IMG/VR virus record: IMGVR_UViG_3300021066_000083
Coordinates: 1-36,778 of that record
Strand: one strand, 5' to 3'
Origin: a virus
Taxonomy: Duplodnaviria > Caudoviricetes
Length of the DNA stretch: 36,778 nt
The notes beneath the pieces were generated by a model. That model was not told the origin of the DNA, did no database searches, and saw only the letters and a program-made list of their open reading frames with translations. The translations under genes were made by a program, and so were the position numbers. Of the stretch, positions 3,499 to 29,000 are shown piece after piece (the stretch's first letter is position 1; every line of letters begins with the position of its first letter).

Positions 3499-4110
3499 AT
3501 GGCGACCAAGCTCTCTGTGTTCAACGAGGCGCTGCGCATTCTTGCCCAGCCGCTGGTCGCCTCGCCCTCCGGGCCCGGCGAGGACCTGCGCCAGCTCAAC
3601 GGCGCCTGGGACAGCGTCATTCGCGCCTGCTACGAGATCGGCAACTGGAACTTTCTCGTCACCCGCGCCGAACTGGCGCGCGCCGCCGAGGTTCCGGTGT
3701 GGGGCTACAGCTATTACTACACGCTGCCCACCGACTTCTCGCGCGTCGTGGAAATCAGCGAGACCGGCGTCAATCACGACCCTTTGCTGCGCTATGAGAT
3801 CGAGCGCGGCAAGGTGGCGACCAACGTCGAGACCGTTTACCTCAAATACATCTCGACCAACATCGCCGCCATCACGCCCGGCGATTGGAGCCAAGCTTTT
3901 GCCGATTACGTCGGCGCCTCGCTGGCCCTGCGCACCGCTCCCAAGCTCAACCCCGCCAACCTGGAGCTGGCCGACGGCTTGGTGAAGTCGAGCCGTGTGC
4001 GGGCGCTGTCGACCGACGCCATTCAGAATCCCCCGGCCATGCGCCAGCAAGGCAACTGGGCCCGAGCGGCACGCGGCATGCGCCGCAACCAGGAGCAGGG
4101 GAGTTTCTGA
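3499..4110 (+). CDS. Tail adaptor / tail tubular protein A (T7 gp11-like), 203 aa
   Basis: MATKLSVFNEAL..L; WNF..TRAEL...P.WGY.Y.Y.LP.DF.R; Y.IE.G...TN...VYLKYI; W...FAD.V...LA; synteny. Confidence 0.85.
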   Translation: MATKLSVFNEALRILAQPLVASPSGPGEDLRQLNGAWDSVIRACYEIGNWNFLVTRAELARAAEVPVWGYSYYYTLPTDFSRVVEISETGVNHDPLLRYEIERGKVATNVETVYLKYISTNIAAITPGDWSQAFADYVGASLALRTAPKLNPANLELADGLVKSSRVRALSTDAIQNPPAMRQQGNWARAARGMRRNQEQGSF

Positions 4111-7100
4111 TGGCTCCGAAGATTGCCCTCGCCTCCAGCCAGAACCTCGACGTCACCTCTTTCAATGCCGGCGAGATCGGCAAGGAAATCCAGGGACGCA
4201 CCTCGCTGGAGCGCTACGCGGCGACTGCCGACATCCTGGAGAATATGTGGCCCCTGCCGGAAGGGCCAATGACCTTGCGTCCGGGCTTTGGCTTCTATTC
4301 CGAGTTCGAGAGCCTGACGCGACTGCGCCGCTGGGTGTTTTCGCTCGACCAAAAGCACTTGATGGCGTTTTCCGACAATGAGCTGCGCATCGTTCAGGAT
4401 GGCGGCGTGCTGGCCCGTCCCGCGGTTTCCTCGACCGTCACCAACGGCGCCTTTGCGGCGCTCACCGGGTGGACAAACATCTCGGCCGGCGGCGGCAGCG
4501 CTGCCGCGTCCTCCGGCTTCCTGACGCTGGCTTCCGACGGCACCTCGATTGCCGGGGTGCGGCAGCAGGTTTCGACGTCCAACGCCGGCACCCTGCATGC
4601 CCTGCGCGTCGTCGTTGCGCGCGGACCCGTCAAGCTCAAGGTCGGCTCGGCGTCGGGCGGCGATCAGTACATCACCACCACCGAGCTGCGCACCGGCACG
4701 CACTCGCTGGCCTTTACCCCGACGGGTTCCTACTGGATCGAAATCTGGTCGAGCCTGAAGCGCACCATCCTCGTCGATAGCGCCACCATCGAGGCGGCCG
4801 GCGACCTCGTGCTGCCGACGCCGTGGCTGGCCGCCGACTACAATACCCTGCGCTTCGAGCAGTCGCGCGACGTGCTCTACGTCTCCTATGGAACCGGCGT
4901 CAAGAAGCGCATCGAGCGGCGCGCCGCCAACTCCTGGTCGATCACCGACTCGGACGAAAAAGACGGACCGTTCCTCGAAGCCAACGTCGATGAATCGATC
5001 TCGATTACCCCGTCGGTCACCTCCGGTAATGGCACCCTCACCGCCTCGGTTGGCGTCTTTCAGGCGGGCCACGTCGGGGCGCTGTGGAAGCTGACCCACG
5101 CCGGGCAGCTGGTCTCTCGCGCCGTCACCGCCGAAAACCAGTTCTCCGACCCGGTGCGCGTCACCGGCGTCGGCGCGGCCTCGCGCACCGTTACCGTCAA
5201 CATCACCGGCAGCTGGTCGGACATCACCGTCACGGTGCAGAAATCGATCGGCAACCCCGGCGACTGGTCGGACGTCTCCTCCTACACCGCCAATCAGTCG
5301 AGCGTCACCATCGTCGACGGCTCCGACAACGAGATCGTCTACTACCGCATCGGCGTCAAGACCGGCAACTATCCGGCCGGCGTCGCCGTCTCCAATGCCG
5401 TCAATAACGGCTCCGGCCTCATTCGTCTCACCGTCACCTCGACCACCGGCTGGTCGACCGGCGAAGCCAAGCTCATCTCCGGCGTCGGTGGCGTCACCAA
5501 CGCCAACGGCACGTTCACCATCACCGTCATCAATGCCACGACCATCGATCTGCAGGCCTCGACCTTTGCCGGCACCTACACCTCGGGCGGCTCGGTCGGT
5601 CCCGGAATTCCGACCGTGCAGCTGTCCTACGGCGGCGGCTCGACCGACGGCATCGCTCGCATCACCGGCTACACCTCGCCGACGCTGGTCGACATCGAGG
5701 TGCTTTCCCAGTTCGCCGCCGCGACGGCGACCAGCTTCTGGTCGGAAGGTTCGTGGAGCGATGTGCGCGGCTGGCCGAAGGGCATTGGCCTGTTCGACGG
5801 CCGCCTGTGGAACGGCTACGCCGATGAGTTCTGGGGCTCGCAGTCCGACCTCTATGAAAGCCAAGCCATCGGCGATGAGGACGATGACGCCATCAACCGG
5901 CTGATCGCCACCGGCAACGTCGCGCAAATCCAGGCCATCCTGCCGCTGCGCCGGCTGATCATGCTCACTGACTCGGGCGAGGTGGTGGTCAAGGCGTCCG
6001 ACTACGACGAGGCCCTGACCCCGGCCAACAACTCGGTGCGCGACGTTGCCTCCTTCGGCGCTGCCGACCTTGCGCCATACAAGCTCGACAACAAGGGCAT
6101 CTACGTCGACCGCTCCAGCATCCACGTCATGGAGCTGAGCTACTCGGTCGATGCCCAGGACTATGTGGCGAGCCCCTTGACGCGCCTGCACAAGAACATC
6201 GGCCGCCCGGGGCTCACCAAGATCGCCTTCTCGCGTCGCCCCGAGACGCGCATGTGGGCAACACGTTCCGATGGGCAGCTGGTGGTCAAGCTCTACGAGC
6301 CGGGCGAGAACGTGCTCGGCTGGGCGCGCGCCAAGACGGCACTCGGCGACAAGATGATCGACGTCGAGGTCCTGCCCGGGGCGGCCGGCGAGGGCGAGGA
6401 CGAGGTGTGGGCGATGTTCCAGCGGCGTCTCACCGACGGCTTCCACTACTACCTGGAGAAGCTCGGGCCGTTCTACTACGAGACGCTGGCCGACGCCTCC
6501 TGCCTCGACAGCTTCGTGCGCGTCGATGGGCCGGAGTGCGAGGCGGTCACCTTCTCCGGCAGTACCTACCTGGAGCGCGGCGCCGATCTCACCGGCGTCG
6601 CCAACGGCAAGGCGGGGCTCGTCTCCTTCTGGACGAAGTTCGCCTCGGACAGCGACGACGTCGAGCAGACCCTCTATGCCTCGACCGGCGAATACCTGCA
6701 CATCCGCCGCACCTCCGGCAACAAGTGGCGCATCTCCGGCAAGAACGCCGCCGGCGCCGTCATTCTCGACATGACCTCGGCCTCGGAGTGGACGGCGGAC
6801 AGCGGCTGGCACCACGTGCTTATCGCCTGGGACTTGGCGACGGGCGCCGGCCGCCTGCGCATCAACGGGGTAGACGACCGCGCCGCCGCGCCAACGCTGA
6901 CCAACGACACGCTCGACTATACGCGCGTCAACCATCATCTGGGCGTCAAGTCGGACGCTACCTTGAAGCTCAACGCCGACATCGCCCAGCTGTACGTCAA
7001 TCTGGCGGCGACCCTCGACATCTCGACCGCCGCCAACCAAGCCAAGTTCCGCTCCGCCTCCGGCTGGCCGGTGCAGCTGGGAACAAGCGGGGCAACGCCG

Positions 7101-8847: not shown

Positions 8848-11088
8848 ATGGCCAAGATTCCGACCGCGGAAGCGCTCGACCAGCCCAACGTCTCGGCGGT
8901 GCCGGTGACGACGCGCGTCCCGAGCTACGACGACAGCGCCTTTACCGCCAGCAATCGCGTCGATGCGCAGAATGCCAAGGCGCTCGGCAACCTCGGCGAT
9001 GGCGTCGAGGACTTCGGCCTCGCCCTGCAGAAGCGGCAGGACGAGGAAGACGAGTATGAGATGCAGAAGCGCTTTGTCGATTTCGACGTGCAACAGGAAA
9101 AGCGTCTGATCGACATGCAGAACAACCCCGGCAAGGAAGCCAAGGGGTTCACCTCATCGTTTGTCGACGGTTACAACCGCGACGGCCGCGAGTTCTTTAA
9201 GTCGGTGCCGTCGCGCCTCAAGGCCAAGTACGACGAGGCGCTGGTGCGCCGCCGTGGCGGCTATGAAAGCCGCGCCTATCGCTACGAGATCGGCGAGCGC
9301 GACCGTCAGCATCGCGAGGACCTCGACACCAAGCTGCTCGATCTCAGGAACGTCACTGCCGTCAACCCCGATGCCTACCGGGAGAACGTGGCGCGCGGGG
9401 TTTCGATCATCTCCGCATCGCGCCTGCCCCCGGCCGACAAGGACAAGGCGATGAAATCCTTTGCGCAGGGCGTCGAGGAGGACGCCGTGCGTGCCCGCAT
9501 CGACCGCGGCGACGACATTTCGCAGATCATCAGGGACCTGAAGGCGCGTCCCGGCACGGTGGCGCCGGAGAAGGCCGAGGTCGAGGGCCTGCTGGTGCCG
9601 GGCAACATCGATTTGGCCGCCCGCAAGATCGTGCACAACCCCGACGGCAGTATTTCGACCCTGAAGTCGATGAGCTTTAAGGACGGCAAAACGGAAGTTC
9701 TGATTCCGACCCTCGATCCGCAGGGCCAGCCGCTCAGCGACGAACAAGCCATCGCCCTCTACAAGGCGACCGGCCAGCATCTGGGGCAGTTCAAGGACGC
9801 CGACACGGCGACGCGCTTTGCCAAGCAGCTCTCCGAGGACATGGAGGCAGCGGCGCTCGGCGAGCCAAGCGAGGCCGACAAGGTCGTCTACCGGCACCTG
9901 AAGCCCGACCAGCGACTGAGGCTGATCAACGTGGCGCGCGTCGCCGGGCGCGGCGAAGCCGTGTCGCGCATTGAAGACGACATTGAGAAAATCCGCGACG
10001 GTATTGATGTGGACATCGTCGACGGCAAGACGAGCCTGGAGCGCGGCGGCGAGTTCCTCACCGACATGCAGCGCGAGCGCTACAGCCGCCGCTGGAACGC
10101 CGCCATCATCGAGAACGCCGCCAAGGCGCCGCTCGCCAACATGAGCAACGACGAGGGCGACGAGCACCTCGGCAACATTCTCGACAAGGCCGAGCAGAGC
10201 AGCGAGGAGGGCTATAAGCTCACCCAGGACGCGCTGCGCGCCGCCAATCCTTACTGGGAGAAGATCAAAAAGCTACGCGACGACGACCCGGCGCGCGCCG
10301 TGTTCGGCTCGCCCGAGGTGCAGGCAGCGGTGCAGACGGCCAAGGCCAAGCGTCTTGCCCCCAACATGAGCGGCGGCGGCGTCGGCACGGCGATCGACGC
10401 CGGCTGGGCGGTGCCGCCGCAGCAGGCGCAGGAGCTGGTGATCGCGGCGCGGCTTGCCGCCCAGAAGCGGCTCGGCATCCGGCTGATGGCGATCACCAAG
10501 CGGGAAGCCGTCGCCCTGATGAACATGCCGCCCGACGACGGCAAGATGACCGATCGTGAATTTGCCGATCACCTGAAGGCCGCCGAGCAACGCGCCCTGG
10601 AAATCTATGGCCCGAAGTACGCAGGCCTCGCCTTCGAGGCCGGCGTCTCGACCCTCGCCAAGCAAGATCGGCGTGACACGGGCTATGGAATCGCTCGAAA
10701 GATCATCGCCGGGGAGCCGATCGGCGAGTTTGACCTCACCCAGCTGCGCGCCATGGCGCGTGTCTCGGGCGGGGACAGGCTGTTCTATCCGGTAGAGGCC
10801 CCTGAGATCGCCCGGGGAGGGATGCGCGATCTCCCCGAGATGCCGGCGCTGCCCGCACCCGGCTTCAACGACGCCAAGCGCGGGGCATCGCCGCCCGGAT
10901 TCAGCCCGGCAACGGCTTACCCGGAACCGACGCCGGAGGACATCGAGCGGTTGCGTCAGAAGCCGTCACGTTACCAGGAGTTCGAGCGCACCTACGGCCC
11001 CGGCGCGGCGGCTCGCGCTCTCAGCACCAAGCCGGCGTCAACGCAGTCCGCGTCCCAGTCGAAATCCAAGTCTGCGAAGGACCGTTGA
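8848..11088 (+). CDS. Internal virion (ejection) protein, T7 gp15-like, 746 aa
   Basis: MAKIPT start, mostly helical, inserted GNIDL...HLGQF domain at ~9590-9840; synteny between the gp14-like and giant genes. Confidence 0.72.
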   Translation: MAKIPTAEALDQPNVSAVPVTTRVPSYDDSAFTASNRVDAQNAKALGNLGDGVEDFGLALQKRQDEEDEYEMQKRFVDFDVQQEKRLIDMQNNPGKEAKGFTSSFVDGYNRDGREFFKSVPSRLKAKYDEALVRRRGGYESRAYRYEIGERDRQHREDLDTKLLDLRNVTAVNPDAYRENVARGVSIISASRLPPADKDKAMKSFAQGVEEDAVRARIDRGDDISQIIRDLKARPGTVAPEKAEVEGLLVPGNIDLAARKIVHNPDGSISTLKSMSFKDGKTEVLIPTLDPQGQPLSDEQAIALYKATGQHLGQFKDADTATRFAKQLSEDMEAAALGEPSEADKVVYRHLKPDQRLRLINVARVAGRGEAVSRIEDDIEKIRDGIDVDIVDGKTSLERGGEFLTDMQRERYSRRWNAAIIENAAKAPLANMSNDEGDEHLGNILDKAEQSSEEGYKLTQDALRAANPYWEKIKKLRDDDPARAVFGSPEVQAAVQTAKAKRLAPNMSGGGVGTAIDAGWAVPPQQAQELVIAARLAAQKRLGIRLMAITKREAVALMNMPPDDGKMTDREFADHLKAAEQRALEIYGPKYAGLAFEAGVSTLAKQDRRDTGYGIARKIIAGEPIGEFDLTQLRAMARVSGGDRLFYPVEAPEIARGGMRDLPEMPALPAPGFNDAKRGASPPGFSPATAYPEPTPEDIERLRQKPSRYQEFERTYGPGAAARALSTKPASTQSASQSKSKSAKDR

Positions 11089-14000
11089 TGGCCGAGAACG
11101 ACGATCTCGACATCCCGTTTGGCCAGCACCTTGACCAGCCGGAGGGCTCGCGCGAGCTGGTCCCGGTTGTCAAGCCGACGCTGCGCGAAACGCAATCGCC
11201 GGTCGAGATCGACCCCGATCCGAATATCGGCGGCCTGCAGATCGAGCGCCGCGTCAATAAACGTCGCGAGCAGGATGACGCCACCGACCGCTCATTCCTC
11301 GATACCTTCGGCCGCTGGGGCTACCTGGAGCCGGAGGAAAAGGACCAGTGGGCGGCTGATACCGAGGCGTATGCCAAGGAGGCGCAGGGCTACTGGGGGT
11401 CGATCAGCTCGATCGCCAAGCGCACCAAGGCGGCAACCGGCTACGACCGGGTTTCCGGCCCGCTGCCCGGGATCGGCGGTGCCGGGCTCGGCCTGCTCGA
11501 TTTTGCCGAGCGCAAGGGCGCCGAAATGCAGGCGTTCTACCAGCGGCGCGAGTTGCTGGCCAAGGCGGTGGCCGAGGGTCGCGCGGCGCTGCCCAAGTAT
11601 TCGCTGGCCCGCAACATTGTCGAGGAGACGCTGAAGGCCGGCGGCGACACGGCCGGCTCCGCCATCAAGGGCTGGGGACGTGGCGCCGGCTATGCGGCCG
11701 ATGCCAGCTATGGGATGACCAGCGAGGAGGAGCGCCGCCAGCAGCGGGCCCGCATGTCGTTCGCCGGCGGCATGATTGCCCCGGAAAAGGCGCCGACCTA
11801 CGCGCAGGAGATCGTCAAGGCCGCCGGCTACGCCTTCGAGCGCGATACCGGCTCGGCGGAAAAGGCGGCCGAGTTCGTGCACCGCCTGTCGGGCAAGACG
11901 CTGGAGCACTTCGGCGGTTTCATTTCCGAGAAGGCGAAAGAGCTGTTCCCCGGCGACGAGGCGCGGCAGGAGGAGTTCGCCACCAAGTTCGCCGCCGGCA
12001 CCGGCTCGATGATCACCTTCTGGGGCACCGGGCTCACCGCGTACTTTCTGACGCGCGCCGGGCCGAAGACGCTGATCCGCACCGCCGACGAGACGGGCGG
12101 CAAGTGGGCGTCCGAGTTCGCCCCCGAGTACATGAGCAAGGAGCTGGCGCAGAAGACGGCCAAGAATCAGGCAGCCGCCGTCTCTGGCGCCACCGGCGCC
12201 ATGATGCAGGGCGAAAGCGCCGCGCAGGAGGCCGAGTTCTACCGCGACGAGCTGGGGCGGTCGGTGTCGCAGCGCGACATCATGATGACCTACCTCTTGA
12301 ACCTGCCGGGCGGCGCCTCGGAAGCCTTGCCCATCGCCAAGCTGTTCGCCAATCCGACCGGCTCGGCGATCAAGAACGTGATCGAGCAGGCGATCGAGGA
12401 GGGCGGGCAGGAGTTCGGCCAGCAGGTCCTGCAGAACCTCATCGCCCAGCAGTATTACGATCCCTCGCGCACCTGGGATGACGGAGCCTGGGAAGGCGCC
12501 GCCATCGGCCTGATGCTCGGCGCCGGCATGGAAAGCGCCCGCGCCGCCTACGAAAAGGGCAAGGTGCAGCTCGGCACGCGCGAGCCGGCAACCACGGGCG
12601 CCGACGGGGAGACCGTCGAGGGCGCGCCGGAGACCGAGAAGGCTCCCAAGCCGGGCGAGACCCTCGACGGCACTGAACAACCTTCGTCTGACGCCGGTGG
12701 GGCAGCAAAGCCCGTCCGCGAGGCCAAGCTCGGCCGCAAGGGCGTCGTCACCGACGTCGAGCCGATCCCGGCCGGTCCCGAGGAGGACCAGCCGGTCGCC
12801 GCCATGACCCAGGGGGCGCCGCAGGGCGAGGACCTCGCCACCGACGCCGCCGACGCCGATCTCAACGAGGATTTTGCCAACCTGATGGGCGGGGCGGTCT
12901 CGGTCGAGGAGATTCGTGCATTCGGTGACGGAGGTGACGCAGTTTCGGTAACTGGCGTACCTGCTGACCAGGGGGGTGTAGAACCGAGCGAGAACCTCAC
13001 TGAAAACACTGGGCAAATAGCAGGTGTGGGCGCGGAACAGGGCGAGAACTCGCCCGAACTTGACGGACTCCGGGCCGAACTTGACGGCATGAAGCGCAAG
13101 GCGCAGCTGATCGCCCGTGCCGAGGCGGCCGGCATCGAGCTGCCCGACGAGGTGACCGATCAGCCGATCGAGACGCTACGCGGCTCGATCCTCAATGCGC
13201 TGGCCAACAAGGACACGGCCCGTAGACAAGTGCTCGCCGGCCGCTCGCCGATCGAGGACGTCTCCGAGGTGGTGACCCCCGACGGGTCGATGAAGCTCAA
13301 GGTGAAGACGGAGCTGGTCGAGCTGTCCGACCTGACGGCCCTCAAAAAGCAGTCGGACCTGCAGCCGCGCGACCGGACCACCAAGGAATCGGAAGCGCAG
13401 GTCAAGAACCGCGCCGCCAACATGGACGTGGCTCGCCTGATGCCGCGCCGCGTCTCCTCCGGCGGGGCCCCGATCGTCATGGCCGACGGCACGGTGCTTT
13501 CCGGCAACGGCCGGGTCCTGTCGCTGAATGAGGTCTACAACAATCCCGAGCTGAAGGCGAAGGCCGATGAGTATCGCGCCGCGCTGCCGCCGGAGGCCGC
13601 GGGCATGCGCGCCCCGGTGCTCATCACCCGCATTGTCGACGAGCCGGATCGCAAGCAGCTGGCCCGCTTCGCCGACCTCTCCAATCGTCCCGGCATGGGG
13701 CAGCTCTCGGCTTCCGAGAAGGGCCTGCGCGACGCCAAGATGGCGGGCGAGGCGATCATGGGCCTCTACCAGGGCGGCTCGTTCACCGCCCCGCAGAACC
13801 GCGACTTCTACCGCGCCTTCCTCGACAACGTCATCGTCGCTTCCGAACGTGGTTCTGTTTCACGTGAAGGGATGCTGACCAAGGAGGGCGAGGACCGCAT
13901 GTCGGCGGCGGTGCTCGCTGCCGCCTACGGCGACCCGCAGCTCCTGGTGCGCATGCTGGAATCGACCGATGATTCGATCCGCTCGGTGACCGGGGCGATG

Positions 14001-17000
14001 CGCGATGCCGCCGGCGCCGTGCTGCGTTTGAAGGCCGCCATCGCTTCCGGCGAGGCTTCCCCGCAGTTCGACATCACCCCGCAGATCGTCGAGGTGGCCA
14101 AGCGCATCGGCGATCTACGCGAGCGCGGCATCAAGCCGGCGGCGTTCCTCGCCCAGCTCGACGCCTTCACGCAGCTCGATCCGATCGTCGAGACCTTGCT
14201 GCGCGCCTTCTACAATGACAACCTCGCCCGCACCTTGTCGCGCGAGAAGTTGACGGAGGTCATCACCCGCTATGCCGACGAAGCCGCCAAGCACGCGGAA
14301 GGCGGGCTCATCCCCGACGAGACCCGCCCGCAAGACATCATCGTCCAGGCCCGCGAGAAAGCCCTCGTTGCCGAAAGGCTTGCCGCCCTCCAAGGCGACA
14401 TCTTCGAAAGCCGCGCAGGCGCTGCTGGCCGGGATACTGCAGGGGACGGGGGCGCGGCGGCAGGACAAGGCACTGCAGCTGGCGGGGCTCGACCTGGAAC
14501 AGAAATCGACGATGCCCTCAAAGGCGCCTTCGTCCAAATCCTCGCCGGAAAAGCCCCACGTGCGGACTGGGCGGCTCAACTCGGGGTCGACGAAAAAACG
14601 CTAGGCGCCCTGGAGAAGTGGGCGATCAGCGGCGGGCTTCTGCGCCAAGCCGCCAACGGACAGGTGCGCCGCACCGGCGCCGCCAAGCTGCAGGCGGCAA
14701 AGCCACAGGCGCAGCAGGACGTCGAGCAGGCGAACGACCAGCTGGCGGAGCGCGAGCGGGCCGCGCGCGCCTTCATGCAAACGCCGGAATGGCTCGGAGC
14801 GGCGGCCGAGGTCGGCGTCGACACGACCCAGCAGCCCGGCTACCTCACCGACGAATGGAAGGCCAATCGCCAGTACATGGCGGCCGACGGCTCGATCATC
14901 CGCGGCTACGAGGCGGTCATCGCTCATCAGTACGCCAAGGCCAAGTCCGAGGTGAAGGGCGGGCCGCGCTATGAGAAGAAAGCCTATATCGTCATCGGCC
15001 TGCCGGCCGCCGGCAAGTCGGGATTGTCGGAGCGCATCCGCGACATTCAGGGTGCGGTGATCGTCGACGGCGACGACTTCAAGCCGATGATCCCCGAGTA
15101 CGGCGGCGGCTGGAATTCTTCCGGCGTGCACGAGGAAGCCTCGAAGCTCTCCAAGGAGTTGCTCGCCGAGGCCTCGCTCGACGGCATCAACCTCATCGTT
15201 CCCAAGCTCGGCTCCTCGGACGCCTCGATCTCGCGCCCGGCCCAGGTGCTGCGCGATCACGGCTACACCGTGCACCTCATCTATGTCGACGTGCCGAAGG
15301 CCGTGGCCATGGAGCGCGCCATCAAGCGCTGGCGCTCGACTGGACGCACGGTGCCGCTGAGCATATATGACGAGCTACGCGCAGGAGAAGTCTATGGCTC
15401 CCTCAAAACCAACGGCGCGGTCGACGAAGCCGCCGTCATCCAATGGGTCGAGCCCAGTGGCTGGGCCGTCACCGATCACACCCAAAACCTCGCCGGACTC
15501 CGGGGAGCCATTTCCGGTGACAGCGCAGTGGGGCAGCCCCCTGTGGGCGGACCAAGTGTCGACGCGCGACCAGCTGGAAGGGCTGCACGAGGCGCTGGAG
15601 CGGCGCAAGAAGCTGCGCGAGCGCCAGAGCCCGTCAACCCCCGAGGAAACGGAGGCGTAAGCCTCGCCGTCTCCCCGGGCGAGCGCATCGAACGCGCCGC
15701 CCGCGGCCGCCGTATTGCCCCGGCGCTCATCGACTACGCGACGCGCCTCGACGCCGCGCTGGGCACGCCTGAGTTCGGCCCCATCCTGGCCGAGCTGAAA
15801 GCCGACAAGACTGTTAAGAAAGATGACGCGGTCGACGTCGCCGGGCTCATCCTCGGTACGACGCTGCCCCGCTCGACCACCAAGAAAGCGGCCTTCCAGT
15901 CGATCGAACGCCGCAACTGGAGCCACGTGCGCACGGCGCAGCGGCTGCCGCACATCGGCGACGTCTTCTCCGCCGTCCTGGAGCTGCCGGCCGGCGTGTG
16001 GGCGATCAAGTCGAGGTCCAACGAGTTCGCCCGCAACTTTGATGGCTCGGTGATCGCCTTCGCCACCAAGGCCGAGGCCGAGGCCTACAACAACCGGCGC
16101 GGGTCGCAGCTCGACGACGCCCACGAAATGATCGAGTCGCTGTTCGACGACATGACCATGTACTCGGCGGTGCTGGGCGCTCCGCGGCGCCGCTACTACC
16201 ACGGCTCCAAGGCGGCCGGCGTCACCCAGCTCGATGCCGCGCGCGCCGGCTCCAACACGCCCTCGCCCAATACGGTGCTTGGCGCCTTCCTCACCTCCGA
16301 CAAGGGCTTTGCCACGGCCTACGGCCCGAACGTGACGCCGTTCGACGTCGACCTTGCCAATCCGCTCACCATCACCGCCCCGAAGGGCTATCCGCCCGAT
16401 CCGACGGCGGCGATCGACGACGTCGTCGCGCGCGCGCTGGGCAAGCCGATCAACAAGCTGACGCGCGAAGACTTCGCCAGCTGGCGCGACGGTCTCATCA
16501 CCAAGGGCCACGACGGCATCTTAGTCGAGAACCCGCACAAGGGCATCGACAATGTCGTCGTGTTCGACGCGAAGAAGGCTAAGCCGGCAACGCCGACGCT
16601 GGCATCGATGGTGGGCGAGCAGGCTGCCGCCTATCCGCCCGGCGTCCAGACCTTTGGGCCGCCTCCGTTCGACCCGGGCGAGCTTCAAAAGGTCGCCGGC
16701 AGCAAGAACGGAGTCAGCCTGTTGCGCGGCACCAAGAGCTACTACTTCCCCCACGAGCGGTTCTACTGGATGATGCTCGAAGGGCAGGCGGAGCCCGTCG
16801 GCTACATCGGCATGAACCGCGAGGGCCGCGACGACGGCGACGCCCAGGAGAACAAGCCCTACGCGCAGCGCCAGGGCGGGCGGTGGATGGTCGACGCCGT
16901 CGAGGTCAACAAGGATTTCCGCGGCAAGGGGCTGGCGCAGAGCGCTTATGACCTCGTCGAGAAGGACCTCGGCATCAAGCTAGCCCCGTCCGACGCGCTC

Positions 17001-20000
17001 AGCGACGACGGCTATAAGCTATGGAAAAAGCGCGATCCGGCGGCGATTGCCGGCTATCAGAAGCTCTCCGGCATGTGGGTTCCCGCTACGACGTTTGCGG
17101 AGCGCGTTGCTGCCGGCAAGACGATCCGCGCCTTCCACGGCATGTCGGGCGCACTGGAGGGCGGGCGCTTCGACGTCGACCGCGCCGGGCAGAACTTCGG
17201 CGATGACGCCGGCATCTTCTTCACCACCGACCCGCGCGAGGCCGGCACCTGGGGGGAAAGCGCCGATTTCATCCCCGAGCGCGGCGCGGCGGTTGTTCCG
17301 GCCGACGTCACCTTCCACAATCCGTTGCGCGTCTCGGCGGCCGGGCACGCCAACGGCCCCGCCGACTACTGGTGGAACCACAAGAGCTATTTGCTGCCGC
17401 AGGCGCACAAGGGCGGCCACGACGGCGTCATCGTCACCGGCAACCCGGGCACAGGCGCCATGCTGGTGGCGCTCTCCCCCAACACCGTGCGCTCGCCGCT
17501 GGTGCCGGACCTCACCTTGTTCTCGATGATGGGGCCCTCGCCGGCCGAGCTGGCGGGGACAAGCCCCCTTGCAAATCCGCGTTCCGATACCGATCCTGAG
17601 CTGGTCGCACTCCTGAAGGAGGCCCTGGGCGATGACTTTATTGCCGCACGAGAAGACGACGGCGGCGCTGGCGCTGCTGGCGAAGATCGAGCAGCTGCCG
17701 AAGGGCGATCCGCTGCGCCGGCAGATGCTGGTCAAGGCGGCCAGCTTGATGGGTCCGCCGCCTCCAAAAAGCGCCCCGTCCCCGAGCGGGTCCGCTTCCG
17801 CGCCTTCGACAAAGTCCTCGGCGGCAAGTACGCGCCGGAAAAAGTAAAGGCGCGCGCCAAGGCGCAGGGCTTCACCGTCGAGGGCTGGCACGGCACCCGG
17901 GCGCCGCAGATCGACGTGCCGCGCGTCGCCCCCACCTATGAGCAGGGCGATAGCAGCGACTTCGGTTTCCACGTCGCCATCGGCCGCCCCAACGCGGCCA
18001 ATCGGATTGTCGGCGTCAAGCCCGGGCTGTTCAGCAAATTCTTGAGCGCCCTGCAAGGCGACTCGGCGACCGCGAACGAGCAGCTTTACGGCGGCATGGG
18101 ACCGGCCAACATCCTGCCGGTGCGCCTCAACGCCCACAAGCCTTATCGCATGGTAGACATCGGCCGCTGGGATACGGCTTTCCAGTGGGAAGCGGCGTTG
18201 GGCGACGCCCGCTTCGCCAACACCAAGCTCGGCAAGCAGCCGGGCACCAAGAAGATTTTTGCCGTCGTGCTGGAACACGTCGAGCGCTACAACAAGCGGG
18301 TCGGCCGCAATACGGCATCGTTCGATGGCGAGGATTTTGTTGCGGTCAACGAAAACGGCGCATGGGTCAAAAAGCCGAAGACTAAAGCTCAGCAGCAGGT
18401 ATCCGTCTCCGATCTAAACCGCGAGTTCCAGCGCGACCTCGTGGCCGCGCTGGAGGCCGAGGGCTACGACTCGGTGATCTACGCCAACGACATCGAGGAC
18501 GCCGGCAAGGACAGTATGTTCGTGTGGGATGCCGCGCGCGTGCGCTCCGCCTACGATATGTTCGATGAGCGCGCCATCGGCAAGCCGGGCACGCTCGCCT
18601 CCAAGGAATTTGTCGACCAGGACATCCGCGACGCCTTGAACGCCATCGCCCTGGAGGAAGGGCTCTCGGGCGAGACGCTGTTCTCGTTTATCGGCGACCA
18701 GGGCGCCAAGGCGCTGGCGCTGGCCGATCGTCCGGCGGCGCAGGAAGCCATTGCGCTGGCCGAACAGCTGGAGGCCGACGGCGCCGATCGGGACGGCATC
18801 TGGGATGCCACGGTCGAGCTGCTCGCTGCCAAGGACCCGGAGCTGATCGGCGCCTTCCGCGGCGCCGACGGGATGTGGCGGGTCGAGGCAGCGGATACCG
18901 GCTTCGGACTGACGCCCCGGGCTGTCGGCATGATGAACGACCAGTGGGACGTCAAGAGCCTAGGCAGGTTCAATAAGACATTCGGTTACATGCCGGCGCC
19001 GCTCGGCAATTTCATCAGCCACCCGACCGTCTTCGCCGCCTATCCGAAGCTGGCGGCGCGCACCGCCTATCTCGGAACTGTCGACCCGGAGTCCCCGACT
19101 GACGGCGGGGGCGCGCAAGAGGTTGGCGCCGACATTGAAAAGTACGACTACGGCATCGAATTGCTGGCCCGCAGCGTGGCGCAGCTCAATTCGTTCAACG
19201 CCCACGAAATACAGCACCTCATCCAGTTCATTGAGGGCTTTGCCTCCGGTGGTAACACGCGCACGGCGCCGGCGGCCTTCCAGCGGCAGATCACCGACGT
19301 CATGCTCGGCGGCGAGGCGACCGACCCGCGCTTCCCGCATGACCTCATCGACTTCAATGATCTGCTCGCCTCGTTGCGCGAACTCAAGGCCGATGGCGTC
19401 GACGTGCGTCAGCACCCATTCGCCAAAGGGGCGAGCACCATCCTCTTTCAACTCTATCAGCGCCTTGCTGGCGAGGTCGAGGCCCGCAACGTTCAGGCGC
19501 GCCTCGCCATGACAGTCGAGGAGCGCCGCGCCGTGCCGCCGTGGCATACCGAGGACACGCCGCAGGCGCAGCAGATACCGATCACTCAGGATGAGCGTCT
19601 CGGCCATGCCGCCCGCCAGATCGCCGGCGTCTCCTCGTGGGACAGCGAGGCGATGCAGGAAGCCGCCGCCAAGCTGCGCTGGTTCACCCTCGGCAAGGCG
19701 GTGACCGCGTGGTTCACCCTGGGGCTGCCGCCGCGTGAGGCCACTGTTTCCAATGTGGAAAACGTGGTTGACCGCGCCGTCGAGCCGCAGTTTACCGACC
19801 CGGCTCCCGCCAACGATACAGCTCCGGCGCTTAACGACAACGACCGCGTGCTCTTGCGCCTCCTGCCGGCGCTGGAATCCGACCCGCTGCGCATCGCTCC
19901 GGTCTCGCAGGAGCTGGCGCGGCAGCTGGAGGCGGAGATCAAGAAGGCGCTGCCGCCGGAGATCGGCGTGCGCGTCGTCGACCGGCTGCGCATCGCCGGG

Positions 20001-26000: not shown

Positions 26001-29000
26001 GGTGGGCGCTCGACCACCCGCCGCTTCCAGAAGGACAAGGCCTTCGCCGGCTCCGATCGCGCTATCGTCAATCCGATCGAGACGATCATCGATCAGATGT
26101 TCCACCGCGCCGCAGCAACCCACTTCAACGACACGGTGAAGGCGCTGGCGACGCTGGCCGACAACACCGGCCCGGGCGGCAACGCCATCGCCGAGCGGGT
26201 CGAGAAGTCGGCGCTGCTCGCCGCCAACGCCGACGGCTTCGCCAAGCTCGAAGGCCACCTCATGTCGCTCGGCTACAGCCAAGAGGACGCGCGCGAGATG
26301 GTGAAGCGCGTCGAGAGCGACTTCGGCGACACGCAGCTGCTGCTCACCTGGGCCCCGGAGAACATGGGCGCCAAGCGGCCGCTGCTGCTGCCGCTGTGGG
26401 AGAACGGCGAGCGCAAGTTCGTGCGCATCAATGACCCCGAGTTCGCCAAGGCGGTGCATGAATCGGTGAACGGCATCGGCCGCGAAATGAGCGGGCTGAT
26501 CATGGATTGGGCGGCGGCGCCGGCGACGTGGCTGCGCCTCGGCATCACCACCAACCCGACGTTCGTCATCCCCAACATCATCCGCGATATGTTCGCCGCC
26601 TTCCAGATCACCGGCTCGATCATGGACCCGCGCACGTGGCCGGTGATTACCCAGGCGCGCGGCCTCTACCACGAGCTGCGACAGACCGATATGGCCCGCC
26701 TCTATCAGGAGGTCGCCGGCATCATGGGCGGGCAGAACGTCGCCGCCTTGTCGAAGGTGCGCGATAAGATGGACGTCATGCAGCTGCAGGACCGCGGCCT
26801 GCGCATCAAGCCGATGCGCCTGCTGATCGCCGGCGGCATCGGCGCCACCGCCGGCTTCGCCCTGGCGGGTCCGGCCGGTTCGCTGTTCGGCGCCTTCCTC
26901 GGTGCCGGCCTGCACCGCGCCGGCAAGTCGGGCACCAACTTCTGGGAAACGATGGCGCTGTTCTCCGATATGTCGGAAACGGCAACGCGGCTTGGCGTGT
27001 TCACCACCGCCTTCGATGCGGCCAAGAGCTACAACCCGCAGCTCACCAAATTCCAGGCGGCGCAGGAGGCCGCCTACGTCGCCCGCGACCTTATCGACTT
27101 CGGCCGCCGCGGCTCCAAGATGCTCGCCGCTTCCCGCCTCGTGCCGTTCCTCAATGCCAACATCCAGGGCCTCGACAAGACGGTGCGCACGCTGGCGACG
27201 GCGCGCTCGGATCGCGGCGCTTCCCTGTCGCCCACCAAGATGGCGGCTGCGGTTGCCGCCGGCGCCGGCGTCGGCATGGCTGCTGGGCCGATCGGCGCCG
27301 CCGTCGGTGCCGTGGTCGGGCCCGCCGTCGCCGCTCAGTTCGCCTCCCGCTCGGAAAAGGTGCGCCGCCTCTTGGCGCCGTTCTATAAGCGCAACTCGGG
27401 CTTGAAGCTCAGCCGCGACGAGGAGCGGGCGCTCGCCGATTCGGCCAAGGCATGGATGAACCTGCTGCTCTATACCGCCTTCCTGCTGTCCTTCCGCTGG
27501 CTCTACGACGACGATGATGAGTACAAGATGATCGAGCCGAAGCTGAAGTACCGCGCCCAGCCGGTGAAGGTCGGCGACGAGTGGGGCGGCATCCCCAAGG
27601 CCTTCGAGTGGTCGATCCCGGCGACGATCATCGAGGCGGCGATCGACGCGCAGCTCGACAGCGACCCACGTTTGAAAGAGCGCATCATCGGGGCGCTGTA
27701 CGAGAACGCCGTGCCGCCGCTGCCGATCCCGCAAGGCTTCACCCTGTGGTCGGACATCCGCTCTAATTTCGACGCCCGCCGCGGCCGCCCCATCGTCCCC
27801 TCGTTCATGCAGAACCGCCCGCCACAGGAGCAGTACAACGCCTATTCGTCCAAGTTCGCCATGTGGCTCGCCCGGCAGATCAACGAGAACGCCGCCCTCA
27901 AGGCGGGCGTCGAAGCGCAGGGCCGCAAGCTGTTCGGCGTCGACCGCTTCCAGGTCTCGCCGCTGCTCATCGACTACGCCATTTCCACCGGCGGCGGCTA
28001 CTGGGGCAAGGATGTGCAGAAGCTCTCCAACTTCGCCGGCGAGGTAGGCCCACGCTCGGGGCGGGTCACCGAGTGGCCAATCATCGGCACGCTGCTGCAG
28101 CGCCTGTCGATCGATCCCTACCGGGCGAACGACGCCAAGGAGGGCTACTGGAAGCGCATGGCCCAGTTCGGCGGCACCTTCATGGTGGCGGCCGGCGGCT
28201 ATGATTCGATCCTCAAGGACCGCAGCCAGGAGGCAGCCAACCAGTTCCTGGCGACGCTCCCCGAGGAGGAGCGCGCCTTCGCCCTGGTCATGGCCCAGGA
28301 GGACACGAAAAAGCGCCGCCTGCACCCGTTCAAGCGCATGGCCGACGTCTACGACGCCACCAAGGACATCAGCCAGGAGATCATCGCCGGCCGCCTGGAG
28401 GATACTTCGGTCAAGAGCGATCCGAAGCGGATCGTCCTCGCCCCCGACAAGGCCTTCGAGGTCCTTAACGCCCTGGAGCAGCTGCAGGGCATCGAGATGA
28501 CCAACACCATGATCGCCTTGAAGATCGATCAGTTCGCCGCGCGCAAGCCGCTCGATACCGCCCCGGCGCTGGCGCTGTTGCAAGCCGCCTCGCCCGCCGT
28601 GGCTGCCGAGTTGCAGGAACGCTACAAACGCAAGCACGTGGTCGACTACGCCGACGCCGTCAAGGAGTGGCCGCTCATCAAAGACGAGCTTATGGAGGAG
28701 TGGGAGGCGAGCATGGCCGGCGGCAACGCCGCCCTGCCCAACGCCAAGCCGCGCAAGATGCGCCTCGGCGGGCCACCAGCCGATCCGCGCGGCAAATGGG
28801 AGGACAGCGGCACCACGCGCCGGGCCCCGGGCGCGGATTCGCAGGACTGGGTCGATCGCCTCCCGGCCATCACCGGAGGACGTGACCGGCCGTCACCCAT
28901 GCCGGTGCTGCCTGGACAAGTGACTCGCGACGACGATGCCGGCGGCGTCTACCACCCGGATGTGATGCTAGATCAGCAGGGCCAGCCGACCGACGAGTTC

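Follow-up and report, generated by a model that had tools for sequence, protein, structure and literature searches.

Why does the codon bias of one giant phage gene collapse at three places, each of them occupied by a complete small open reading frame (ORF) in another register? The gene lies on the virus record IMGVR_UViG_3300021066_000083 of IMG/VR (Duplodnaviria; Caudoviricetes), which was analysed over its full length of 36,778 nucleotides and is called the window below. It encodes a protein of 5971 amino acids (aa) with several enzyme domains, and an earlier note had proposed that the three nested ORFs (ORF1, ORF2 and ORF3) encode antidotes or regulators of these domains, so that each effector and its partner move as one cassette. 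The comparison with relatives supports the second part of this proposal: the linkage of partner to domain persists, and the nested ORFs behave as real, domain-specific genes, each travelling as a cassette with an enzyme domain.

Signals and codon usage of the nested frames

All three ORFs start with ATG, lie wholly inside the giant gene and are in the +1 frame relative to its ATG at 11088 (Table 1); their coordinates, frame, starts, Shine–Dalgarno (SD) motifs and stops are as first reported. The SD motifs are GGAGGT at 14255-14260 for ORF1, with a long spacer of 11 nt, AGGAG at 15383-15387 for ORF2 with a spacer of 6 nt, and AAGGAGG at 17616-17622 for ORF3 with a spacer of 9 nt. The nested stops are indeed formed by rare codons of the main frame, namely CTA, which makes up 16 of the 893 Leu codons, and GTA, which makes up 12 of the 666 Val codons. 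Sliding-window analysis of the G+C content at third codon positions (GC3) agrees with the inversion of codon bias claimed earlier: the main-frame value falls to 0.52-0.54 in the nested regions, compared with about 0.85-0.9 elsewhere, and 57-58% of the main-frame codons in the three nested cores end in A or T. Measured in 40-codon windows, the codon adaptation of the +1 frame is 0.45-0.67 in the nested ORFs versus 0.26 ± 0.08 otherwise. The flip is confined to the helical core of each ORF, and the tails rich in Ser, Thr, Pro and Lys are an ordinary +1 shadow of the main frame.

Codon adaptation was also scanned in 1049 windows of 30 codons from six large genes, and windows were flagged when the +1 adaptation exceeded that of the main frame by more than 0.1. 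Every flagged window of the giant gene that is free of stops falls within the three nested ORFs, and those flagged at 12948 and 28848-28878 contain stops. The giant gene holds 11 SD-led ORFs of at least 45 aa in the +1 and +2 frames, so that openness and an SD motif alone prove little, and the codon flip and the relatives carry the case. These 11 ORFs, together with a fourth dip in GC3 that lacks an ORF, could speak for a compositional artefact, with Gly/Ala/Arg linkers in a GC-rich genome mimicking a coding +1 frame. The relatives argue against this: partners are enriched at fixed positions in genomes of 33-69% GC (31 clusters against 0.7 expected for the kinase and 21 against 1.8 for ParB, see below), and sequence homologues were found for all three nested peptides. 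Positional enrichment, homologues and the substitution shift described below have already largely refuted this explanation, and we regard it as highly improbable. The three ORFs share the features of embedded genes, being wholly nested, having their own ribosome-binding site and start, and being conserved in relatives.

The fourth dip spans 12813-13000 (GC3 of 0.52), just before the ParB cassette, and has stops in both the +1 and +2 frames and a GGAGGT motif. No nested ORF was found in it, the segment has no match in the close relative P0007, and neither the window nor the relatives L090-L092 have a gene before ParB. The dip is possibly a decayed nested gene.

Table 1. Positions of the giant gene, its domains, the nested ORFs and the promoter candidates (all + strand).
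Feature	Position	Strand	Evidence or remark
Giant polyvalent protein gene, 5971 aa	11088..29003	+	podovirus-like structural module
DdrB-like ParB (aa 735-848) and conserved helical region, cognate of ORF1	13290..14387	+	PF18763, E 3e-24
Candidate sigma70 promoter, ORF1 (TCGAGA-17-TACAAT)	14188..14216	+	top-ranked + strand site in gene
Nested ORF1, 110 aa, +1	14272..14604	+	homologues L161, L165
Zeta-toxin-like P-loop kinase domain, cognate of ORF2	14742..15500	+	PF06414, E 1e-19
Weak candidate promoter, ORF2 (TGGACG-17-TATATG)	15341..15369	+	5% of 369 control windows score as high
Nested ORF2, 88 aa, +1	15394..15660	+	homologues P0005, L180-L183; positional enrichment
ART-like domain 2 (ART-2), upstream neighbour of ORF3	17115..17441	+	PF18760, E 3e-4, below Pfam cut-off
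Candidate sigma70 promoter, ORF3 (TTGCAA-17-GATCCT)	17569..17597	+	second-ranked + strand site in gene
Nested ORF3, 71 aa, +1, helical hairpin core 17632-17760	17632..17847	+	L177 homologue
ART-like domain 3 (ART-3), travelling partner of ORF3	17850..18590	+	PF18760, E 6e-4, below cut-off; L177

The probable partner of the zeta-like kinase

The core of ORF2 (about 15502-15640) lies in the linker behind the kinase, and its tail overlaps the last two strands of the kinase domain; a further in-frame ATG upstream, at 15367, has no SD motif. The kinase model has a predicted local distance difference test score (pLDDT) of 94, and the closest solved folds are zeta (1gvn), PezT (2p5t) and AvrRxo1 (4z8q), with Foldseek E values of 1e-10 to 1e-6. 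All of these are toxins that were crystallised with small partner proteins. The Walker A Lys and the Asp, His-Glu and Arg residues are invariant in 36 of 36 aligned rows, so that the domain has, as in the epsilon/zeta systems, a zeta fold with intact catalytic motifs.

We grouped the best 80 of 142 confirmed IMG/VR relatives of the kinase into 37 clusters at 70% identity and tested 36 of them, leaving out one cluster with a truncated sequence. An SD-led +1 ORF of at least 45 aa starts within a 14-codon interval in 31 of these 36 clusters, compared with 0.70 expected from intervals of equal width elsewhere in the same genes, the interval having been chosen after seeing the data; the +2 frame gives 0 of 36 in the same interval. 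The partners start 140-153 codons past Walker A, mostly at exactly 144. Wholly nested partners account for 28 of the 31; in the other three (L059, L060 and L064) the kinase is C-terminal, and the partner ORF overlaps its end and continues beyond the stop codon. The five exceptions were inspected individually. The nested start is shifted in L003 and L070, L054 has a separate downstream gene, and in the L010 clade a similar-looking segment forms, by eye, the N-terminus of the next gene; L033 has no partner, though its cluster-mate L079 has one. An adjacent small gene is therefore conserved in 31 of 36 clusters by the rule and in 35 of 36 after inspection, and it takes four forms: separate, overlapping, nested, or fused to another gene. 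As a side observation, the next large gene in L010, L068 and L077 appears to carry the kinase partner as a fused N-terminus.

The nested start is also visible in the codon choice of the kinase. The ATG arises from an Asp-Gly pair, and 20 of 22 clusters use GAT for this Asp compared with 12.5 expected (P 3e-4; the clusters are not fully independent). Among 14 disjoint pairs of kinase relatives, the mismatch at main-frame codon positions 1, 2 and 3 is 0.14, 0.08 and 0.36 before the core, 0.27, 0.17 and 0.18 inside it, and 0.18, 0.17 and 0.35 after it. Inside the core, the variability thus moves from main position 3 to position 1, which is the wobble position of the nested frame, and this indicates purifying selection on the nested frame of the kinase partners. 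These features bear on the idea of programmed frameshifting, which would give shortened giant proteins with alternative tails, or of nested translation that only regulates the long mRNA. The position of the ORFs at domain borders would suit this idea, and SD-like motifs can stimulate frameshifts, but the codons that create the ATG are selected, the spacing of SD and ATG is of the initiation type, and elsewhere the same partner is a gene of its own; we give this explanation little credence.

ORF2 itself has an independent homologue, P0005, found among 1.84 billion representatives (E 1.2e-6; 34 of 60 residues identical, 57%). It also matches the nested ORFs of the closer kinase relatives L182 (1 of 2000 shuffles scoring as high) and L183 (0 of 2000), and less clearly that of L181 (242 of 2000). 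The start codon of L180-L183 is ATG at a position where the window has ACG, and the window instead uses an SD-led ATG about 10 codons upstream, from which we infer a turnover of the start under selection for expression. The ACG, the difference between the ORF1 start and those of its relatives, and the +1 stops in the fourth low-GC3 linker would also be expected if the nested ORFs were vestiges, remnants of captured downstream genes that have lost their use in this phage and decay, with the codon flip as their fossil. Such decay is very unlikely, as all three ORFs are intact with strong SD motifs and ATG starts, ORF2 has a replacement start, the nested frame is under selection in relatives, and P0005 retains its identity to ORF2.

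ORF2 matches no Pfam or PHROG family, and its core had no positional match among the distant loci. Locus scans that used the kinase, ART-2 or ORF3 as a single protein gave no confirmed relative. The phmmer match P0004 was rejected as spurious, being a repeat protein.

The arrangement reaches beyond uncultured phages. A Bacillus plasmid (NZ_CP035996.1; L186 2256-2366) carries an unannotated 36-aa ORF with an SD and a promoter-like motif after a stand-alone zeta-family gene. The cultured archaeal halovirus HCTV-1 has an unannotated acidic 39-aa +1 ORF (38% Asp and Glu) with a GGAG SD motif after the zeta domain of gp109 (L184 2123-2242; NC_021330.1 72114-72233), and the main frame of gp109 is Arg/Gly-rich across it. 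Separately, 59 Bacillus plasmid records match the kinase query, and the L180 locus (344-2938), a kinase with a nested partner in an 860-aa ORF, lies in a Hyphomicrobiaceae genome bin among ordinary cellular genes and is not an evident phage module.

Probable partners of the ParB and ART-like domains

The core of ORF1 (about 14407-14510) has a helix-Asp-helix pattern that is, by eye, common to many ParB partners, and its first ~40 codons are lineage-specific. We compared 94 ParB loci, which, apart from the window, form 53 clusters. In 21 of these, the ParB-linked helical region ends with an SD-led +1 ORF of at least 40 aa, versus 1.8 expected, and the +2 frame of the same region gives none. Among all fetched loci, the best match of the ORF1 core is the positional homologue in L161 (score 59; 0 of 1000 shuffles), followed among ORF1 homologues by L165 (2 of 1000), and four others match weakly (24-211 of 1000). 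P0007 lacks both ParB and the ORF1 linker, which were lost together. On a quick tree, the presence of the ParB partner requires 11 changes, of which 7 or more are forced; for example, the sister locus L091 has the partner and L092 has only a doubtful 33-aa ORF. Unannotated SD-led +1 ORFs also follow the ParB cassette in the cultured Pseudoalteromonas phages Y7 (L086 2956-3087) and Y3 (L089 4019-4156). L152 has, after its ParB-linked ORF, a second nested +1 ORF of 129 aa in the same giant gene, with a strong codon flip and a folded-looking sequence. Searches of PDB sequences with the ParB and ART-3 alignments found nothing.

Regarding ORF3, the earlier note had paired it with the ART-2 domain that precedes it, just as it had paired ORF1 with ParB and ORF2 with the kinase. 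The latter two pairings hold. The pairing of ORF3 with ART-2 is not supported, because the linkage to the downstream ART-3 persists while the upstream neighbour changes. In P0007, P0008, P0009 and L177, ART-3 keeps both the SD-carrying main-frame helix and the Gly/Ala linker; their upstream neighbour is an unrelated segment, an ART that resembles ART-1 more closely, a kinase, or an HExxH-bearing domain. No ART-2 was found on the upstream side of the ORF3 region in P0007, P0009 and L177. L177, whose ART-3 is 34% identical to that of the window, has an SD-led +1 ORF directly upstream of it (6846-7076), and ORF3 matches this ORF at 15 of 43 residues (score of 54 compared with 22 ± 4; 0 of 2000 shuffles). 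Back-translation of P0007 puts the ORF3 core (22 of 28) and the ORF2 core (15 of 21) at the linkers where they were expected, each as the top-ranked match, in a test that is partly circular, and the same test gave nothing in P0008, P0009 and P0001. A protein search with ART-2 and ORF3 found no relative, the ESM Atlas gave no usable match for ORF3, and the ART-3 model has a pLDDT of 40.

Possible origin and action, and precedents

The window is a linear record of 67% GC, about 69% complete, whose DNA was found in soil metagenome runs; no RNA dataset is listed among the runs that contain it. Contigs of run X1, possibly the source, span 12500-18700 with 0 differences, and identical pieces, among them 15473-15699, occur in a second study, X2, so the sequence is not an assembly artefact. 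The giant gene is flanked by genes for a major head protein, tail proteins and a T7 gp14-like internal virion protein, which is a late, virion gene context. Besides DdrB-ParB and the zeta-like kinase (match at aa 1294-1430), its product matches ART-PolyVal at aa 1703-1835 and 4064-4219, GNAT and LPD38; the Pfam families are PF18763, PF06414, PF18760 (in two places) and PF18857, and three more ART-like stretches fall below the Pfam cut-off. With several conflict-related domains in one polypeptide and this context, the product classifies as a polyvalent protein. Scans of 16 and 14 ORFs turned up no lysogeny gene. Short LAS/FAS/LFS motifs recur, by eye, at the ends of domain cassettes in the giant protein and its relatives, and are possibly processing or recombination boundaries. 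Outside the giant gene, a flagged codon-adaptation window at 3885-4005 reflects a mis-set gene start: within 3885-4110 the longest-ORF start at 3885 is too early, because the coding bias there sits in the overlapping frame of the tail-tubular gene at 3499-4110, and the tail gene begins further downstream.

Several known systems resemble this one in part. Nested phage genes as such are known. In phage lambda, Rz1, a lysis lipoprotein, is encoded wholly inside the larger gene Rz. The iddB ORF of phage P1 lies inside ddrB in a similar nested layout, but it is antisense and within the ParB match, and we rejected it as prior art; P1 ddrB has no partner-like +1 ORF after ParB. The epsilon and PezA genes lie upstream of their toxin genes. 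The window shares with epsilon/zeta, PezAT and AvrRxo1-ORF1/ORF2 a kinase fold and a small helical partner gene, but here the kinase is an internal domain of a putative virion protein of 5971 aa, and the partner is downstream, out of frame in the same gene and unmatched in Pfam and PHROG. Polyvalent proteins as described by Iyer et al. (2017; PMC5512222) are, like the product of the window, giant late-gene proteins with DdrB-ParB, zeta-like kinase, ART, GNAT and LPD domains, and zeta-like kinases are named there in both polyvalent and MuF proteins. The nested partner genes differ from this description, as the main text of that paper gives 0 matches for 'overlap', 'immunity protein', 'small protein' and 'cognate'. 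MuF toxin genes have a small ORF after them, proposed as immunity gene, in 89.4% of cases (Jamet et al. 2017; PMC5576092), and are likewise phage virion-associated enzymes; their toxin, as presented there, is single and C-terminal with the ORF past the stop codon, whereas here several internal domains each have a nested partner. ORF1 and ORF2 directly follow their domains as in MuF toxins, ORF3 precedes its own, and no MuF domain was found in the giant protein. In the Rpn system, as reported by Zhong et al. (2023; 10.1101/2023.05.02.539157), the gene of the antitoxin likewise sits inside that of the toxin, and has its own promoter and start there. RpnS is the in-frame C-terminal domain of RpnL, a host defence gene; the partners here are several, all in the +1 frame, encoded by a phage and without sequence relation to the long protein. 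By the features compared, the arrangement would work like a toxin–immunity pair but is not a member of the epsilon/zeta, MuF or Rpn systems. Literature searches that covered few subscription papers, mainly at the level of abstracts, and keyword searches of the main text of PMC5512222 gave no description of out-of-frame partner genes inside polyvalent proteins. What the window contributes is a near-universal kinase partner that takes four gene arrangements and extends to viruses of archaea, a partner that lies upstream of an ART-like domain, and test systems in culture.

How could such partners have come to lie inside the gene? The earlier note had the antidotes overprinted on pre-existing linkers, and this order of events should probably be reversed. 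The linker is more likely the read-through frame, because in some relatives the partner of the kinase is a separate or overlapping downstream gene and because the preferred codons are in the nested frame; the small gene is probably the older of the two and the linker its read-through shadow. From these comparisons we infer that operons of enzyme plus partner were captured and that each product binds its own domain. A gene for an enzyme would have been taken into the growing giant gene together with the small partner gene downstream (or upstream) of it, the stop codon of the enzyme would have been lost, and the giant frame would then read the partner gene out of register as a Gly/Ala/Arg linker. 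Each partner may bind one domain: ORF1 the ParB module, ORF2 the zeta-like kinase and ORF3 the following ART-like domain. The bound enzymes would stay off in the virus-producing cell, and would act only when the giant protein had been packaged and injected without the partners.

The steps of this proposal differ in strength. The nested frames are very probably translated. That the partners inhibit their enzymes, and so shield the producing cell until the giant protein is delivered without them, has about an even chance of being right. Inhibition is suggested by the near-obligate partner of an intact zeta-fold kinase, by the same position behind the stand-alone plasmid homologue, and by the established layout of toxin and immunity gene (PMC5576092). 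The chief rival is that the partners bind their domains as chaperones for folding, solubility or packaging, or as activators. It predicts the same domain-specific linkage and fits the optional ParB partner better, and P1 DdrB is described, where PMC9024508 treats it, as aiding the addition of DarB to the capsid and not as a toxin. Packaging is irrelevant for the non-virion plasmid kinase that has the partner too, and the nearest folds of the kinase are the toxins of toxin–antitoxin systems; we consider the chaperone role unlikely, if less so than the other alternatives. The three partners need not be alike in action.

The promoter candidates touch a further explanation, in which the ORFs are independent small cargo genes, early effectors or regulators, that sit in tolerant flexible linkers and are merely physically linked to the domains. 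The earlier note had assigned a candidate sigma70 promoter to each ORF. The sites of ORF1 and ORF3 rank first and second on the + strand of the gene, as such cargo would suggest, and the site of ORF2 is outside the top 14; this ranking used an E. coli sigma70 matrix. A plain consensus scan gave 2 sites versus 1.3 ± 1.4 in shuffles, which is the chance level. The evidence for internal promoters is no more than suggestive, and separate transcription is plausible. A promoter-like site on the - strand at 14193, which ranks third there, stands back to back with the candidate of ORF1. The rapid divergence of the partners, for which no shared profile could be built, would also suit cargo, but each partner family keeps to one domain despite changes of neighbour, across bacterial and archaeal viruses, and the ORF2 start is written into folded kinase strands rather than free linker. 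The cargo explanation is thus rather improbable.

Several observations weigh against inhibitory partners with genes of their own. First, the promoter enrichment in relatives is modest, with the top decile reached in 12 of 31 and 5 of 20 cases, and a Tyr-codon test for a conserved -10 box was null (TAT in 15 of 26 compared with 14.9 expected). Second, the conservation of start and SD expected in the earlier note holds for the kinase and fails in part for ParB, where the partner is present, by eye, in 27 of 56 rows and dispensable in about half of the relatives; the close relative L090 and P1 DdrB lack it. This patchiness fits an optional regulator better than an obligate antidote. The shift in synonymous variability, also expected, is likewise clear in the kinase relatives and weak for ParB, with 5 pairs and position-3 variability that is not regained past the stop. 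Third, the ORF1 ATG lies ~25-35 codons upstream of the starts of its relatives, besides its 11-nt spacer, and this distance makes the true start of ORF1 uncertain. Fourth, all kinase relatives keep the catalytic motifs, with or without a nested start, so that no link between partner loss and enzyme death is seen. Fifth, profile hidden Markov models of the relatives' nested peptides (in one of the searches built from 17 rows picked by eye) missed ORF1 and ORF2 among 546 segments of the window. Finally, ART-2 and ART-3 both fall below the Pfam cut-off, and ORF3 has a single DNA-level homologue in L177, the only relative with DNA.

In its broadest form, the proposal is that tailed viruses of bacteria and archaea enlarge their giant injected proteins by taking in whole operons of enzyme plus antidote. 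The antidotes would survive as a hidden +1 layer whose read-through shadows are the flexible linkers of the protein, and would form an unannotated self-immunity that works domain by domain, with one cryptic antitoxin for each toxic domain. We advance it tentatively, as somewhat short of an even bet. It is directly testable, because the arrangement is present in cultured systems, halovirus HCTV-1 and the Pseudoalteromonas phages Y7 and Y3. If true, it would answer how a phage can make much of a protein studded with toxic enzymes without the early death of the factory cell, and the low-complexity linkers of polyvalent proteins would be by-products of hidden genes. It would also provide a rule for toxicity, in that a domain is likely to be dangerous where its hidden partner is near-obligate, and would reveal a large set of unannotated small enzyme inhibitors.

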